From a virus (Duplodnaviria; Heunggongvirae; Uroviricota; Caudoviricetes): a stretch of 39,239 nt of DNA. Under the pieces are notes generated by a model. That model did no database searches and had not been told where the DNA came from. It worked only from the letters and a program-made list of their open reading frames with translations. The stretch covers positions 1 through 39,239 of IMG/VR virus record IMGVR_UViG_2737471849_000004. One strand, given 5' to 3'. Positions 29,654-37,229 of this stretch are shown here, one piece after another (the first letter of the stretch is position 1; each line of letters starts with the position of its first letter). A program made the position numbers and the translations under genes.

Positions 29654-30346
29654 ATGTTATATGCATTTAAGCTGGGCAGAAAACTGCGCGGCGAGGAACC
29701 TTATTACCCTGAAAAAGGCGGGAAAGGTGGCAGTTCTGATAAAAGCGCAAAGTATGCAGCAGAAGCTCAGAAGTATGCCGCAGACCTGCAAAATCAGCAG
29801 TGGCAGACGATCATGAAAAACCTTGCTCCGTTCACGCCGCTTGCGGAGCAGTATGTTAACCAGCTTCAGAATCTTTCCAGTTTAGAAGGACAGGGGCAGG
29901 CACTTAATCAGTATTACAACTCTCAGCAGTATAAAGACCTTGCAGGTCAGGCGCGTTACCAGAGTCTTGCTGCTGCGGAGGCGACGGGTGGACTTGGTTC
30001 GACAGCCACAAGCAATCAACTGGCTACGATCGCGCCGACACTCGGTCAGTCTTGGTTATCAAACCAGATGAGCAATTACAACAATCTGGCAAACGTTGGG
30101 CTTGGTGCGCTGCAAGGTCAGGCAAACGCCGGGCAGACGTACGCCAACAACATGAGCAGCATTGCACAGCAAAGCGCAGCACTTGCCGCTGCTAATGCCA
30201 ATAAACCATCAAGTCTTCAGACTGCAATTAGCGGTGGCACGTCTGGTGCGATTGCCGGTGCAGGTCTTGCCAGCCTTTTGGGAACATCAACGCCTTGGGG
30301 CGCTGGCATTGGTGCTGGTATCGGATTGCTTGGCTCGTTGTTTTAA
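29654..30346 (+). CDS. Ejection protein (P22 gp7-like)
   Basis: 230 aa; Q/A/G-rich with C-terminal glycine-rich hydrophobic tail; canonical position. Confidence 0.65.
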   Translation: MLYAFKLGRKLRGEEPYYPEKGGKGGSSDKSAKYAAEAQKYAADLQNQQWQTIMKNLAPFTPLAEQYVNQLQNLSSLEGQGQALNQYYNSQQYKDLAGQARYQSLAAAEATGGLGSTATSNQLATIAPTLGQSWLSNQMSNYNNLANVGLGALQGQANAGQTYANNMSSIAQQSAALAAANANKPSSLQTAISGGTSGAIAGAGLASLLGTSTPWGAGIGAGIGLLGSLF

Positions 30347-30355
30347 GGGGTAATC

Positions 30356-31813
30356 ATGGCTACTTGGCAAGGAACAAACGGCGGATTGTTGGCTGGTATC
30401 GGCGGCGTCAACTCAAACGCTCCGAGCGTAAATGACATCGGCAATACGCTTCAGATTATCAGGCAGAACAATGATATTGAGCGTTCAGGCGCTAACAATG
30501 TTGGGCTGACTGCTTTGCAAGGCCTTTCAGGTATTGCTGGGGTGTTTCAGCAGGAAAAGCAGGCTCAGCGGCAGAAAGAATTTCAGCAGGCATACGCTAA
30601 TGCTTATGCGTCTGGTGATCGCGGTGCTTTGCGTCAGTTGGCTACTCAATATCCAGACCAGATTGAATCCGTTCGTAAAGGCATGGGATTCATTGATGAA
30701 GAGCAGCGTAATTCTATCGGCACCTTAGCGGCTGGCGCACGCCTTGCGTCATCGTCTCCAGAAGCAATGCAATCATGGCTGCAAAACAACGCCAAGGAAC
30801 TGACTCGCGTCGGTGTTGACCCTAACAGCGTTGCTCAGATGTATCAGCAGAATCCTTCAGGATTTGGTGAGTTTGTTGATCACCTTGGAATGGCCGCGCT
30901 TGGTCCGATTGATTACTTCAATGTTCAGGACAAGATGGCTGGTCGTGAAATTGACCGAGGCGGGCTGGCAGAGACAATCCGCAGCAATCAGGCCAGCGAA
31001 GCACTTCAGGCGAGAGGGCAGGATATTAGCCGAGCAAATGCGTTAACGTCAGCATATGCACCAACAGCAGCAATGCAGAATTACAATCAGTACGCGCAAA
31101 TGTTAAAGGTGGATCCAGAGGGGGCGGCGGCATTTGCGGCAGCGGCTGGAATTAATACAAACGCCAAAAAATTAATGAGTGTTAGAGAAAACGATGATGG
31201 CACTGTCACAAAATACTACACAGACGGAAGTGAAGAGCAGGGAAAACTAAACCAGCCAATATCTGGAGATGGGTTTCGTCCAATAGCTTTGCCAACAGCC
31301 CAAAAGATCATGGAAAAGTCGCCAGAAGGGGCTAAAAAAGCTGCTGGATTTGCATACAGGGTTAGGGATGCTCTTGATTCAATGGATACACTGAAAGACC
31401 AGCTTAGCCCACAGCGAGTGGCGGTCATTAATAATGCTTTGGGTAATGGGACGCTGGCTAACTTAACGCTCAGCCCAACAGAGCAGCAATACGTTGTTAA
31501 TGCTAATGACGCAATAATGGCAATACTCCGTCAGGAAACAGGGGCAGCTATCGTACCTGCTGAAATGTCAAAATATTATCAAATGTATTTCCCTCAGCCT
31601 GGCGACTCCACAAAAACCATTGATACCAAGCGCCGGAAGATGGAAAACCAGTTCAATTCGCTGAAAGCTGCTTCTGGTCGAGCTTATGATGCTTTGCGGG
31701 TTATTTCAGCAGTTGACAGAGGAACTTCTTCTTCGTCGCAGACATTGCCGCAATCTGAGCAGGTATCACAGCCAGCAGCCAGCAGTAACTTTTCTTCACT
31801 ATGGGGTGATTAA
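30356..31813 (+). CDS. Ejection protein (P22 gp20-like)
   Basis: 485 aa at the gp20 position. Confidence 0.65.
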
Positions 31814-33996
31814 TGGCTAAAGCATGGAAAGATGTTATCGCCTCTCCACAGTATCAGGCGTTAGCACCAGAACAAAAAGCGCAGGCTCAGGAGCAATACT
31901 TCAATGAAGTCGTTGCCCCGCAAGCCGGAGAAAATGCAGAGCAGGCAAAACAAGCGTTTTACTCTGCTTACCCTAGAGGTCTGCTAGAGAAGGGTAATAT
32001 TGACATTCACAATCGGCCTGTTGTTAAAAACTCTGATGGCAGCATTAGCACTGTGCGGAGCATGTCTACCAATATAGATGGTAGAGAGGTGCTGATTCCT
32101 ACCGTTAGTGATGATGGTCGCATTATGTCTGATGATGAAGCTATTGATAACTTCATGAGGACGGGAAAGCATCTTGGTATGTTCGACAATCCTGACGATG
32201 CCACTGCATATGCGGAGAGTCTGCACAACCAGCAAGCTGATGAATACCTCCCTAGGAAGAATCAAGCTACACAACAGCCTGTACAGCAAAGTACACAGGC
32301 AGCGCCACAGCAGCAAGGAGGTTTCATTTCCGACCTTGGCAATGCCGCGGCTGAAACTGGTCGCGGACTGGTGCAGGCTGGTCGTGGTCTGGTAAACATA
32401 CCATTTGACGTATTGCAGGGTGGTGCAAGTCTGATTAATGCAATCAGTCAGGGGCTTGGTGGGCCAAAAGTATTGGATGATGTCTATCGTCCTGTCGATC
32501 GACCGACAGACCCTTACGCGCAAGCCGGTGAAACAATTGGTGGGTATTTAGTTCCAGGAGTTGGAACGGCAGGAAGCATGGCTATTGGATCGCTGGCAGA
32601 GGCCGCAAATCAGAAAGGCGATTTCGCACAAAATGCAGCTAAAAATGCCGGAGTTAACCTTGCCGCTCAGGGTGTTCTTTCCGCAGCTGCAAAGGGAATA
32701 GGGCGTGGAATAACGGCTATAAAAGGTGATATTGCGCCAGAAGTGGCGAAGAAAATTGCCACATCAGAATCGATGGGCGTGACACCAATGACATCTGATG
32801 TTATCCCGCCGAAAAATGCTTTCACTCGCGGCCTTACTCAGGATGCCGAGGGGGCTTTGCTCGGGACGGGTTCAAAGCGAGCAGAGCAATATGCAACGCG
32901 GAGTAAGCTGGTAAGCAATTATTTTGACCGTTTTGGTGAGTACAACCCTGATGATGTGGTGAAATCTCTGACCACCACGTTAAGGGGGCGGAAGGATGCC
33001 GCTGGCGCTGTTATCAATGACGTCACCAATAAAATGGGTAATGCCGCAGTTGATACCACAAATACCATGAATGCTCTGAATACAGCGATCGCAAGACAGG
33101 AACGGCTTGGGACGTCTGCCAATCAAAGCCTGCTTACATCCTTGCGTAACCTACGTGAAGAATTAGCAAACCCTGCAACTGATTTGGATGTTACGTTTGA
33201 TCTCTTGCGTCAGCACAGAACAGCATTTAGATCTAATGTTCAGGGAGATGCTATGGTCTTCCCCAACCAGGCAAAAGCAGCTACCAATATGGTAGAGAAT
33301 GCAATGTCAAAAGACCTTCGTAACGCAGTTGCTAAAAACCTCGGTGCATCAGACGCAGCAAAATACCTTAAAGCAAATTCCGATTATGCAAACGTTTATA
33401 ATAAGGTGCTTAATAAAAACATTGCCAACAAGCTCAACAAGGCAAGCAGTGAAGCCAGTCCTGAACTTATAAATACCGTTGTATTAAGCAGAAAACCATC
33501 TGACGTGAAACGAATCTGGAGCGCACTGGATGATAAGGGGAAAGATGCTATGCGTGCAGCTTACGTCAGCAAAATAGCGGAAAAGGCCGGGGACTCTCCA
33601 GCCAAGTTCATCACTGAAGTTAATAAGCTGAAATCTCAGTCAGGCGGTGAAATTTACAACACTATTTTTTCTGGAAAGCACATGAAAGAGCTTGATGCTC
33701 TTCATGAAGTTCTACAGCAAACAGCAAGGTCAGACACCGCAAATGTAGTAACTCAGACGGGGCAATCGCAAGCCAACAGGATAAGGACGATTGGCGCAAC
33801 TGCGACCCTTGGCGTATCAATGGGGCTTGAGGCTGGTTTTGGTGCAATGATGCGCTTGTATGAGTCCAAAGCAGCAAGGAATATGCTTCTTCGTTTGGCA
33901 AACACCAAAGCAGGAACACCAGCCTATGAAAGAGCGATAAATAACGCTGCGAATGCCATCAGACCGCTGTTTGCTACTGAGGCAACACAGCAGTAA
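31813..33996 (+). CDS. Ejection protein (P22 gp16-like), extended
   Basis: 727 aa at the gp16 position; long Ala/Gly-rich central region. Confidence 0.65.
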
Positions 33997-34020: not shown

Positions 34021-34410
34021 CTAACATTTTCTTTTTACTTTTCCAACAAAAGCTTTGGTTGAATCCATATTTCCATAACCGGAAATGGTTTTTGACATTA
34101 AAACTGTTCCAGTAGGATGTATTACCCATGAGTCGATAACGCGTTGAGTTTCGCCATTCGCGCCGATTCCTATGATGGAGTTTTTAGACAATGCTTTGTA
34201 AGCCATGCCGCCCGCATCTGTCCCAGAATATGTGATGCTGGCATCTTCACCGTTTGTCTTAATGATGAATGTTCCACTAAAACCATCTTCTTCCGGATGG
34301 AAATTATTTCGTTCTGAATAGCTTATTCCGCGCATATCTCCAACGACCCAGCACTCTGCTGTAGCCCCAAAAGATATGAATAAGAACATAGCAGTAAGAA
34401 ATTGCTTCAC
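34021..34410 (-). CDS. Secreted (periplasmic) protein of unknown function, accessory
   Basis: GTG start 6 nt after AAGGAGG; signal peptide MKQFLTAMFLFISFGATA then about 110-aa beta-rich domain with Cys near both ends. Confidence 0.6.
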   Translation of the reverse strand: MKQFLTAMFLFISFGATAECWVVGDMRGISYSERNNFHPEEDGFSGTFIIKTNGEDASITYSGTDAGGMAYKALSKNSIIGIGANGETQRVIDSWVIHPTGTVLMSKTISGYGNMDSTKAFVGKVKRKC

Positions 34411-34440
34411 ACCAACCTCCTTAGTTTTTCGCAGGATACC

Positions 34441-34806
34441 ATGAAAAAAGTTAACATTGGAAACGTACCAAAGATGCTCGTTCCGCTCTTTGAGAGCGGT
34501 ACAATTGTGTTTTGTAGAGACTTTCCAGAATGGCAACGCCTGCATCAAAAACTTGGCGTTGACGTGCATGACTCGGACGCCAACGGAGCGTCTCATACAA
34601 TGAGTAGCGAGAATGGTGTTTTGCATGTGATAGGCGTGTTCAATGGCAAACTATCTACTATTGCCCATGAGTGCGCTCACATGGCATTCGATATCTGCTC
34701 AAGGGTAGGTGTTGATGTTGAACCAGGAAGAGCCAACGAGACTTACTGCTACTTAATGAGCAGGCTTGTTGAGTTCTGCGAGCGACATATCAAAAAGCCG
34801 GAGTGA
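34441..34806 (+). CDS. HExxH-motif small protein (putative zinc-dependent metallopeptidase-like), accessory
   Basis: About 121 aa from MKKVNIGNVPK...; contains TIAHECAHMAFD plus several Cys; divergent from the secreted-protein gene 30 bp away. Confidence 0.5.
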   Translation: MKKVNIGNVPKMLVPLFESGTIVFCRDFPEWQRLHQKLGVDVHDSDANGASHTMSSENGVLHVIGVFNGKLSTIAHECAHMAFDICSRVGVDVEPGRANETYCYLMSRLVEFCERHIKKPE

Positions 34807-34819: not shown

Positions 34820-34999
34820 TTACTTTTTGCTGTCTGGAGTTCGCTTATCCAATACCCAGCCATGACCTGGCTTTGTTGTTGGCGGAAGCCTTTCGTTGTC
34901 CTTGACGGTGGCAAAATTATCTTTCTTACCTCCGCGCGGGCCAACTTCTTGGTATATTCCGCCGTTTTTTCCTGTGTTTTCACCTGGTTTTTTCGCCAT
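34820..34999 (-). CDS. Small hydrophilic Gly/Lys-rich protein (YjzC-like by recollection), moron
   Basis: 59 aa MAKKPGENTGKNGGIYQEVGPRGGKKDNFATVKDNERLPPTTKPGHGWVL...; GAGG upstream; bracketed by its own putative promoter and terminator. Confidence 0.5.
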   Translation of the reverse strand: MAKKPGENTGKNGGIYQEVGPRGGKKDNFATVKDNERLPPTTKPGHGWVLDKRTPDSKK

Positions 35000-35080
35000 G
35001 ATATACCTCAACATACACCCGTTATTGGGCGATTAAATATTGATCTCATTTTATAAGTAGTCAATATGGCCCAGGTAAAT

Positions 35081-35108
35081 GCAAAAATTAACCAGCCATC
35101 AGGCTGGT
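35081..35108 (-). terminator. Intrinsic terminator after the small membrane-protein gene
   Basis: Minus-strand hairpin ccagcc-tgat-ggctgg followed by ttaatttttgc. Confidence 0.5.
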
Positions 35109-35109
35109 A

Positions 35110-35292
35110 TTAGTCACATTCTATTTCTTTTGTCGAGGTCCATACATAAGGATCTGAGCAAACAACCTCTCCATTTATCATGACGTCATAGCCCATTAGA
35201 TATGAGTTACCACCAACAATCTGAGCGGCTATGACGCTAATGCTGGCGGCGCAGGCTGCACCAAAAACGAAACCAATTAATATATTTTTCAT
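35110..35292 (-). CDS. Small membrane/secreted protein with C-terminal Cys pair (toxin-like architecture), moron
   Basis: 60 aa; hydrophobic segment [25 protein letters not shown] then [27 protein letters not shown]; own terminator. Confidence 0.45.
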
Positions 35293-35483
35293 TTTAATTC
35301 CAAATAGTTATAGGATGAAAGTTATGACCATAGAAGAACGTCTGAACAACATTGAGTTGAACCAAACCCTGCTTGACCAGCGACTTTCAGATCTTGAGCT
35401 TAAAGATCTAGATGCGCAAATATCAGAAGCAGAAGCCAAGCTCTCCAGCCTAAACCACCGCAAGAAGCAAATCCGCAACAGAA

Positions 35484-35693
35484 TTACTCAGGGACGCGGA
35501 AGCTGTTGAGGTGGGATGCTAGGTCTCTATCGTTAAAATCAAGGCTGCTAATCATTTCATTGTAAATAGCGTTTTTATCTTCCATTGGCAGTCTTGAGTA
35601 AACCAGACACAGAGCATATTTCAGGGAGTTTAGCTCTTTCTCTAGCTCTTCCTTGCTTGATGTTTTTGACTTAATAAACTGTTTTTTATTCAT
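35484..35693 (-). CDS. Hypothetical protein translationally coupled to mnt (69 aa)
   Basis: ATG overlaps the mnt stop (ATGA); charged, helical composition. Confidence 0.45.
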   Translation of the reverse strand: MNKKQFIKSKTSSKEELEKELNSLKYALCLVYSRLPMEDKNAIYNEMISSLDFNDRDLASHLNSFRVPE

Positions 35694-35926
35694 TTTGCAT
35701 CCTTACCATACATGGTTTTCAGTGTTTCAATCAGCGCATCCCTGAATTTGTCAGCCTCTTTCTGAGCAAATTCATTGCTATTAAGCGATCTACCACAAAT
35801 AGCATCTTCGATAATCTGTATTATTTCAGCATTCATGGAACGCTTGTTATGTTGTGCCCTGGCTTTAACCTTTGCCTTTAACTCTTTGGAAATCCTGATA
35901 TTTATTTGCGGCTCTTCGCGTGACAT
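35690..35926 (-). CDS. mnt: Mnt-like ribbon-helix-helix repressor
   Basis: 78 aa; PQINIRISKELKAKVKARAQHNKRSMNAEIIQIIEDAI fits the Arc/Mnt RHH fold; divergent from arc-ant. Confidence 0.7.
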   Translation of the reverse strand: MSREEPQINIRISKELKAKVKARAQHNKRSMNAEIIQIIEDAICGRSLNSNEFAQKEADKFRDALIETLKTMYGKDAK

Positions 35927-36014: not shown

Positions 36015-36188
36015 ATGATAGTCAAGTCAGACGCACCAAAGTACCCTTTGCGCATCCCATTAGAGGTTAAGTTAGCAATCGAGAAGTCAGCGAAAGAAAA
36101 TGGTCGCTCAATAAATACCGAGATGGTAATGCGGTTAGTGGATAGTTTAAGGCGGGATAGTTCTAAAGGTAATCTAGCAAAAAGTTGA
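36015..36188 (+). CDS. arc: Arc-like ribbon-helix-helix repressor
   Basis: 57 aa from the ATG after GGAGG; [35 protein letters not shown] resembles P22 Arc. Confidence 0.7.
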
Positions 36189-36250
36189 AGCCCCAACTGC
36201 GGGAACAGTCAGGGCTTCGGTATCAACAAATCGGATTAGGAAATATTGAC

Positions 36251-37129
36251 ATGAAAAGTATAGCAAAGGCACAAAACGATTTCACCATCTTCAAATTCGG
36301 CGACAGTGAAATCCGCGTCATCAACAAATGCGGTGAGCCGTGGTTTGTAGCAAAAGATGTTTGTGATGCTTTAACCCTGACTAACTCACGCAAGGCGCTT
36401 ACTGCACTTGATGACGATGAAAAGGGCGTAACTTTAAGTTACACCCTTGGTGGTGAGCAGAATCTAAGCATTGTTAGCGAATCAGGTATGTATACATTGG
36501 TTCTGCGCTGCCGCGATGCTGTCAATAAAGGTTCGGTCCCGCACAAATTCCGCAAGTGGGTAACAGCAGAAGTTCTACCTTCAATTCGCAAACATGGCGA
36601 GTATGTGAAAGGCAAGAAAACCACTGTTGAGGAAAGAACACCGCTACGCGATGCAGTAAACATGCTGGTAGGAAAGAAAGGACTTCGCTATGACGATGCA
36701 TACAATATGGTTCATCAGCGTTTTGGTATTGACAGCATTGATGAACTTTCAATTGAACAAATCCCGCAAGCAGTAGAGTACATCCACAGGGTAGTGCTTG
36801 AAGGCGAGTTAATCGGCAAACAAGAGAAGAAAGCAAACGAGCTTTCTGCAAAAGAAGCAAACAGCCTTGTATGGTTATGGGATTATGCCAACCGCTCACA
36901 GGCATTATTCCGCGAACTGTATCCGGCATTAAAACAAATTCAATCGAACTATTCCGGCAGATGCTACGACTACGGTCATGAATTCTCGTATGTTATCGGA
37001 ATGGCGAGAGACGTTTTAATCAATCACACACGAGATGTTGATATCAATGAGCCAGACGGACCAACGAATCTTTCCGCATGGATGAGACTTAAGAATAAAG
37101 AATTACCTCCTTCAGTACATAACTACTGA
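36251..37129 (+). CDS. ant: Antirepressor Ant (Bro-N domain)
   Basis: About 292 aa; N-terminal [28 protein letters not shown] is a Bro-N signature; downstream of arc. Confidence 0.8.
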
Positions 37130-37148
37130 CAGATAACCAACGCAACGA

Positions 37149-37171
37149 CCCAGCTTCGGCTGGGTTTTTTT
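37149..37171 (+). terminator. Intrinsic terminator after ant
   Basis: Hairpin cccagc-ttcg-gctggg followed by ttttttt. Confidence 0.8.
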
Positions 37172-37229
37172 ATGCCCAAAATTCACCGTAGCCATGCTGC
37201 GGCGATTCCTTGTATCTGGAGCAAATTAA

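Follow-up and report, generated by a model that had tools for sequence, protein, structure and literature searches.

A polymorphic cargo slot at the mnt 3′ end of P22-like phages, with the mnt-fused gene ORF69 as a candidate prophage accessory gene

The 3′ end of mnt was found to be a polymorphic cargo slot, and ORF69, a 69-aa open reading frame fused to the mnt cistron, was its commonest occupant in the sample. We consider it probable (roughly 55%) that ORF69 is a prophage accessory gene, i.e., cargo or a moron that is carried on the mnt transcript and stands outside the immI circuit. The gene had already been catalogued as a hypothetical protein and as a PHROG family; new here are the slot polymorphism, the conservation of the junction across genera, and the pair formed by ORF69 and the convergent gene orf61. 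All coordinates refer to the window, which is the whole stretch of DNA that was analyzed (39,239 nt) and is a P22-like (Lederbergvirus) genome.

ORF69 (35693..35484, minus strand; supported by the ORF list, a match to phrog_16466, dN/dS and an AF2 model) is flanked by the ejection-protein genes (gene 7-20-16) on one side and the tailspike gene on the other, and lies on the strand opposite to the late operon. The ejection-protein genes together span 29654-33996 and comprise P22_gp7 (29654-30346), Inj_translocase (30356-31813) and, at the position of gene 16, a 727-aa ORF; the tailspike gene, with its Head_binding domain, runs from 37230 onward. In P22-like phages, the interval from gene 16 to gene 9 is a variable “ant moron” (Villafane et al. 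2008, PMC2629481). Here, it holds arc (36015..36188, plus strand), ant (36251..37129, plus strand; Bro-N plus P22_AR_C) and, divergent from these two and therefore in the mnt position, a 78-aa ORF (35926..35690, minus strand) that encodes an Arc-like RHH repressor (PF03869, E 4.4e-13). This protein is 35% identical to P22 Mnt, and a C-terminal TLK..Y.K motif is common to both. The closest deposited relative over this region is Escherichia phage Kapi1 (98.2% identity). Kapi1 (locus L001, 5091-5591) also has an HNH endonuclease gene between ant and tailspike, and the window (37130-37229) is without one.

A 69-aa ORF that starts on the mnt stop codon by an ATGA overlap had been proposed from the letters alone, and direct reading of the junction bears this out. 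Plus-strand bases 35690-35693 are TCAT; read on the minus strand, the start codon of ORF69 (ATG, 35693-35691) shares bases with the stop codon of mnt (TGA, 35692-35690). An AAGGA Shine-Dalgarno sequence (35700..35704, minus strand) lies in the mnt codons for G-K-D, 6 nt before the ATG. The stop/start overlap (35690..35693, minus strand) is kept in homologous loci, and a 4-nt overlap with the upstream cistron was found in every mnt-linked ORF69 homologue examined. Among diverged E. coli and metagenomic loci, ORF69 always starts 4 nt inside the mnt end, with mnt alleles of 78, 83 or 84 aa, and the distant homologues of Proteus, Rahnella and one Providencia-type locus likewise begin 4 nt within it.

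When diverged loci were aligned, the shared DNA block started approximately 18 nt before the ORF69 ATG, whatever gene lay upstream, and ended at the start codon of orf61. The upstream edge of this conserved block, including the Shine-Dalgarno sequence, is TATGGnAAGGATGnnAAATGA, which encodes …YGKDxK and the stop. Other genes intervene between mnt and ORF69 in some phages: Emek and some E. coli prophages carry a 77-aa membrane-protein gene there, which is unrelated to mnt and yet has the same end (…KDAK, stop and ATGA), and in Providencia a 92-aa gene intervenes. Given these block edges and intervening genes, ORF69 carries its own initiation region in the tail of any preceding cistron. The junction RNA was no more structured than shuffled sequence (z +0.73), so the ORF69 start site should be accessible. 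Initiation could therefore occur directly as well as by re-initiation, i.e., without strict dependence on mnt translation.

ORF69 matched phrog_16466, a phage protein family of unknown function, over its full length (E 4.6e-51, residues 1-69 of a 69-position profile), and it is annotated as hypothetical in Kapi1 (Kapi1_062) and Emek (orf69). PHROG alone matched; scans of ORF69 against Pfam, NCBIfam and PADLOC returned nothing. Pairwise dN/dS was calculated over codons 1-61, which do not overlap orf61, against four homologues with 76-84% protein identity (P0035, P0037, P0039 and P0043). Values of 0.04-0.14 were obtained at dS of 0.5 to > 1.5, with synonymous sites near saturation, and ORF69 is thus not a chance reading frame; it is a real gene.

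The family is narrow, consisting of 46 clusters that are all from Escherichia or Salmonella. Copies at least 95% identical to ORF69 were present in 74 of 5426 complete E. coli genomes. In a set of 50,697 phage records, ORF69 was confined to Kapi1 and Emek. Relatives with 33-50% identity were found in P22-like prophages of Providencia, Proteus and Rahnella and also in Enterobacter by a profile search of 1.8 billion representatives together with a second profile search, the first of which recovered three true distant relatives. Two further hits (P0047 and P0051) were rejected as repetitive false positives. ORF69 is not in P22 and is patchy among close relatives, as are ant-moron genes.

The region after mnt was surveyed by an IMG/VR junction pattern scan and three scans with different Mnt proteins, which gave 160 unique loci with a full-length mnt. 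Half of these loci (80/160) have a coupled ORF starting −11 to +5 of the mnt stop, 60/160 have no coupled ORF, and 20/160 have a spaced downstream ORF; as the loci came from three Mnt query types, with the top 80 retained for two of them and 47 for the third, the sample is biased and these proportions are indicative only. The coupled ORFs at the 80 loci make up 17 families, and no similarity was detected from one family to another. ORF69 accounts for 22 loci and occurs with five Mnt N-terminal types, followed by a 104/105-aa secreted protein (n = 17), an 89-92-aa family (n = 9), a 178-aa family (n = 6) and others. Several of the cargo families carry signal peptides. Six alternative cargo proteins were scanned against Pfam (above threshold) and PADLOC, and no known family was matched, defence and exclusion families included. 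At the 60 cargo-free loci, P22-type included, mnt ends in …KKPT with its stop codon within the terminator hairpin.

Across loci L145-L351, mnt has two alternative 3′ ends (window 35690-35710), namely …KKPT and a stop in the hairpin, or …YGKDxK and a stop with a Shine-Dalgarno sequence and ATGA. Two tandem mnt-like genes of different types were observed in five P22-like IMG/VR loci (L254-L256, L263 and L266), where a gene starting MSDRKYKN… is followed 26 nt later by one starting MARDDPHFNF…. Elsewhere in the window, a secreted-protein ORF (34021-34413, minus strand) has …ECWVVGDMRGISYSERN… and resembles a 129-aa gene with …DCWIVNDMKGVSYSARN… that occupies the mnt-coupled slot in locus L320; the resemblance is a shared motif seen by eye only. 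If this likeness is real, cargo genes would shift position within the region.

The sequence-only reading had offered ORF69 either as a lysogen-specific factor or as a regulator of the immI switch. As a regulator, ORF69 would assist or modulate Mnt, Arc or Ant as a partner protein, and it would be made in a fixed ratio with Mnt through the stop/start overlap. The tight mnt overlap, kept over five genera and several Mnt types, would suit this role, as would a small helical protein, a kind that often acts by binding a partner. Set against it, P22 and the 60 mnt loci without a coupled gene do without ORF69, the slot is otherwise filled by 16 other unrelated families that include secreted proteins, and the genes between mnt and ORF69 in Emek and Providencia separate the two cistrons. 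Nor is the ORF conserved wherever mnt is conserved: it was present in 22/160 mnt loci and absent from P22.

Copies of ORF69 that lack immI also bear on this regulatory role. Two loci (L353 and L355) have no mnt, arc or ant, yet an intact ORF69 homologue adjoins the tailspike gene. A remnant mnt tail (…TLYEKDKK and stop) with its ATGA is kept in L355, whose ORF69 is only 69% identical to that of the immI-bearing Proteus prophages; such retention, with divergence between two Proteus-type copies, counts against a role in the switch. Upstream of the L353 homologue lie a TAAGGAG site of its own and a promoter-like TTGTCA. Enterobacter prophages with a different tail type (L018-L020) carry the ORF69 homologue as a lone opposite-strand gene between the tape-measure and DUF6246 genes. 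The Ant N-terminal domain found alongside ORF69 also differs from phage to phage (Bro-N in the window, P22_AR_N elsewhere), and no fixed association was found. ORF69 thus does not co-occur exclusively with the immI components (Mnt, Arc, Ant, sar), being absent from P22 and most mnt loci and present without mnt, arc and ant. Because of the slot polymorphism, the immI-less copies and the lack of a fixed Ant association, a role inside the Mnt/Arc/Ant circuit is disfavoured, and we regard it as improbable; in its occurrence, ORF69 is independent of immI. For the immI field, this is mostly a negative result, and the switch seems to gain no new component.

The arrangement of mnt and ORF69 also resembles type II toxin-antitoxin operons with an RHH antitoxin, in which a second small gene overlaps the end of a small RHH gene by 4 nt, and ORF69 would then be the toxin and the upstream RHH protein its antitoxin. 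We give this interpretation almost no weight. By its position, divergent from arc-ant, the RHH gene is mnt and encodes the immI repressor; ORF69 is exchanged among five Mnt types and also occurs without an upstream RHH gene, and the same slot holds unrelated genes, secreted proteins among them. It fails two defining tests of such a pair, as neither a recognised toxin fold or family (the protein is an all-helical bundle, and no toxin family or PADLOC model matched) nor inheritance as a fixed pair (five Mnt types, intervening genes and mnt-less copies) was found.

The structure of ORF69 was modelled with AF2 from a 16-sequence alignment (pLDDT 82.6, pTM 0.58). In the model, residues 1-13 are disordered, and helices at 14-33, 37-48 and 53-65 form a small three-helix bundle. 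Six residues, namely L24, L35, S50, D55, D57 and N63, are invariant in all clades and are grouped in the turn and third helix, which is likely a binding surface. A fold search with the model gave no functional lead, its best match, Bacillus subtilis YfhH (PDB 1sf9), being uninformative. No transmembrane helix was predicted in ORF69. A SieA-type superinfection-exclusion membrane protein was considered as an identity for ORF69 and was rejected, as there was no match to PF26849 or any other Pfam family and no predicted transmembrane helix. In loci L006 and L007, a separate SieA gene lies downstream of ORF69.

It had also been proposed that ORF69 is translationally coupled to mnt, and this part of the sequence-only reading has support: the ORF is fused to the mnt cistron, it lies on the lysogen-expressed strand, and no promoter-like or terminator-like site was found between the two genes. 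A consensus scan detected no promoter-like site inside mnt, and no minus-strand terminator-like site was found from mnt to an intrinsic-terminator-like hairpin with a T-run (35091..35108, minus strand; terminator scan), which by its position is homologous to the mnt terminator of P22. Past the stop codon of ORF69, the RNA was not significantly structured. The last mnt-strand gene before this hairpin is orf60 (35110..35292, minus strand; PHROG 37095), which encodes a 60-aa signal-peptide protein (residues 1-22 are annotated as the signal peptide in the equivalent Kapi1_060) and probably closes the mnt transcription unit. Window positions 34990-35108 are collinear with the P22 stretch that runs from ORF59 to the stop codon and terminator of mnt, and it follows that, relative to P22, the whole interval from the mnt promoter to the ancestral terminator has been replaced. 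The order of the replacement is mnt, ORF69, 191 nt antisense to orf61, and orf60. Between mnt and arc, a consensus scan and an inverted-repeat search yielded nothing convincing as mnt or ant promoters or operators.

Published expression data bear on this transcription unit in two ways. In a stranded RNA-seq study of a Kapi1 lysogen grown in LB or simulated intestinal fluid, mnt (Kapi1_063) was reported to be below the detection threshold, and Kapi1_062 is not among the genes listed there as undetected, with no value given (PMC12922286). As mnt was undetected, its promoter may give very low expression in stable lysogens, or transcription of ORF69 may take another route. In the P22-like prophage Gally of E. 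coli LF82, induction of 6- to 40-fold inside macrophages was reported for mnt and the four rightmost genes next to it (PMC9928086), which indicates that expression of the mnt region can depend on conditions. We infer that ORF69 and Mnt are co-expressed in lysogens, possibly weakly.

Convergent with ORF69 is orf61 (35324..35509, plus strand, i.e., the late-operon strand; PHROG 7586), a 61-aa coiled-coil gene whose last 26 nt overlap the ORF69 3′ end. Purifying selection acts on orf61 (dN/dS 0.05-0.22), and it was found in 22/22 of the surveyed ORF69 loci. Homologues with 22-37% identity and the MTIEERL start in common stand beside the distant ORF69 relatives of Proteus and Providencia and those of immI-less loci, including L353. 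Where mnt, arc and ant are missing, ORF69 usually keeps such a convergent coiled-coil neighbour, 55-61 residues long, which overlaps its 3′ end. Other loci have orf61 and no ORF69 (10 with the 105-aa cargo, 3 with the 178-aa cargo, and phage S.Kent 1-2-1), and the Rahnella and Enterobacter homologues of ORF69 have no orf61-like neighbour. In P22, late transcription crosses the ant moron and continues into the gene for the tailspike (PMC2629481); on that basis, orf61 is plausibly late-expressed and the two transcripts would be mutually antisense.

From this arrangement, ORF69 and orf61 might be thought a functional pair expressed in opposite states, ORF69 in the lysogen from the mnt strand and orf61 in lytic growth from the late strand. 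The 3′ overlap would then provide mutual antisense interference, and the proteins might bind or neutralise each other, as a toxin and antidote or an abortive-infection switch. The constant company of orf61 in the survey fits such a pair, as do the purifying selection on both genes, the recurrence of the arrangement with a 10-26-nt 3′ overlap in Proteus and Providencia loci and L353 at 22-50% protein identity, its retention where mnt, arc and ant are gone (L353 and L355), and the conserved DNA block bounded exactly by the ORF69 upstream Shine-Dalgarno sequence and the orf61 start codon. The loci with orf61 and another cargo, or with ORF69 and no orf61-like neighbour, argue against it, and both proteins lack hydrophobic character and any match to a toxin or defence family. 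The data allow a functional pairing without requiring one, and in our view it is rather unlikely. Type I toxin-antitoxin loci such as Fst/RNAII and TxpA/RatA have convergent, 3′-overlapping transcripts. The geometry of ORF69 and orf61 is similar (convergent, with 3′ ends overlapping by 26 nt), but both of these genes are protein-coding and under purifying selection, and neither encodes a small hydrophobic peptide.

If ORF69 is instead accessory cargo on the mnt transcript, as we prefer, a transcript from the mnt promoter would run through mnt, ORF69, the region antisense to orf61, and orf60 to the ancestral mnt terminator (35108..35091). Ribosomes would begin ORF69 at the ATG on the mnt stop by using the accessible AAGGA in the last mnt codons, and the protein would be made whenever Mnt is made, presumably while lysogeny is being established and maintained. 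Late transcription, which runs rightward across the region, would oppose the mnt-strand transcript. The product would be a small cytoplasmic accessory protein with a disordered N-terminus and a three-helix bundle of approximately 55 residues, and it may bind another protein through its conserved C-terminal S-x-D-x-x-D-x-D-L-A-S-x-L-N-x-F. The benefit would likely be to the lysogen, e.g., by interference with an incoming phage or with a late function such as orf61; this class of benefit is argued from position only.

The sequence-only reading placed lysogen-expressed exclusion genes of P22 on this side of immI, and sieA is indeed located there. Like ORF69, the P22 ant-moron genes sieA, hkcC and orf59a (PMC2629481) belong to a variable block, lie opposite to the late operon, and are present or absent among relatives. 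ORF69 has no sequence relation to SieA (PF26849) or to the other ant-moron genes of P22, and it is predicted to be a soluble three-helix protein rather than a membrane protein as in SieA. Its cistron is fused to mnt by the ATGA, whereas sieA of P22 is a gene on its own that lies farther along that strand.

Placement of a non-regulatory gene directly downstream of a lysogeny repressor has parallels elsewhere. In phage lambda, the accessory genes rexA and rexB are located behind cI and are made in the lysogen. Genes 44/45 of epsilon34 lie behind its repressor (PMC2629481). The likeness of ORF69 to these genes is one of position, and it differs in that the repressor here is the secondary repressor Mnt and not CI or C2, and in that only one protein, of 69 aa, is carried.

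If ORF69 and the other mnt-fused genes are made in lysogens, the junction would mark an exchangeable store of host-benefit or anti-phage genes in P22-like prophages of E. coli, Salmonella, Proteus and Providencia. The …YGKDxK, stop and ATGA would then be a short sequence landmark for mining cargo, which here amounts to about 17 small uncharacterised families. A bolder joint proposal would make the mnt 3′ end a dedicated, translationally fused slot for at least 17 unrelated lysogen-expressed genes and a compact anti-phage or fitness hot spot, with ORF69 and orf61 as an undescribed two-protein module that is reciprocal in lysogeny and lytic growth and controls superinfection or the late functions of the prophage itself; taken as a whole, we hold this to be doubtful.

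Two further features of the region were observed. On the late strand, a 134-aa ORF (34402-34806, plus strand) carries an HExxH motif (AHECAHMAF) and had no family match; it may be a small metallopeptidase-like late-strand gene, and phage S.Kent 1-2-1 has a 121-aa form of it that starts from a later ATG. Near ant, a promoter-like site with an extended −10 (36285..36257, minus strand) lies inside the ant start, and a strong terminator-like hairpin (36218..36187, minus strand) lies between arc and ant. Judged from the sequence, the layout of this site and hairpin (36187-36285, minus strand) and the predicted size of approximately 65-70 nt are as would be expected for a sar-like antisense RNA of the P22 kind.
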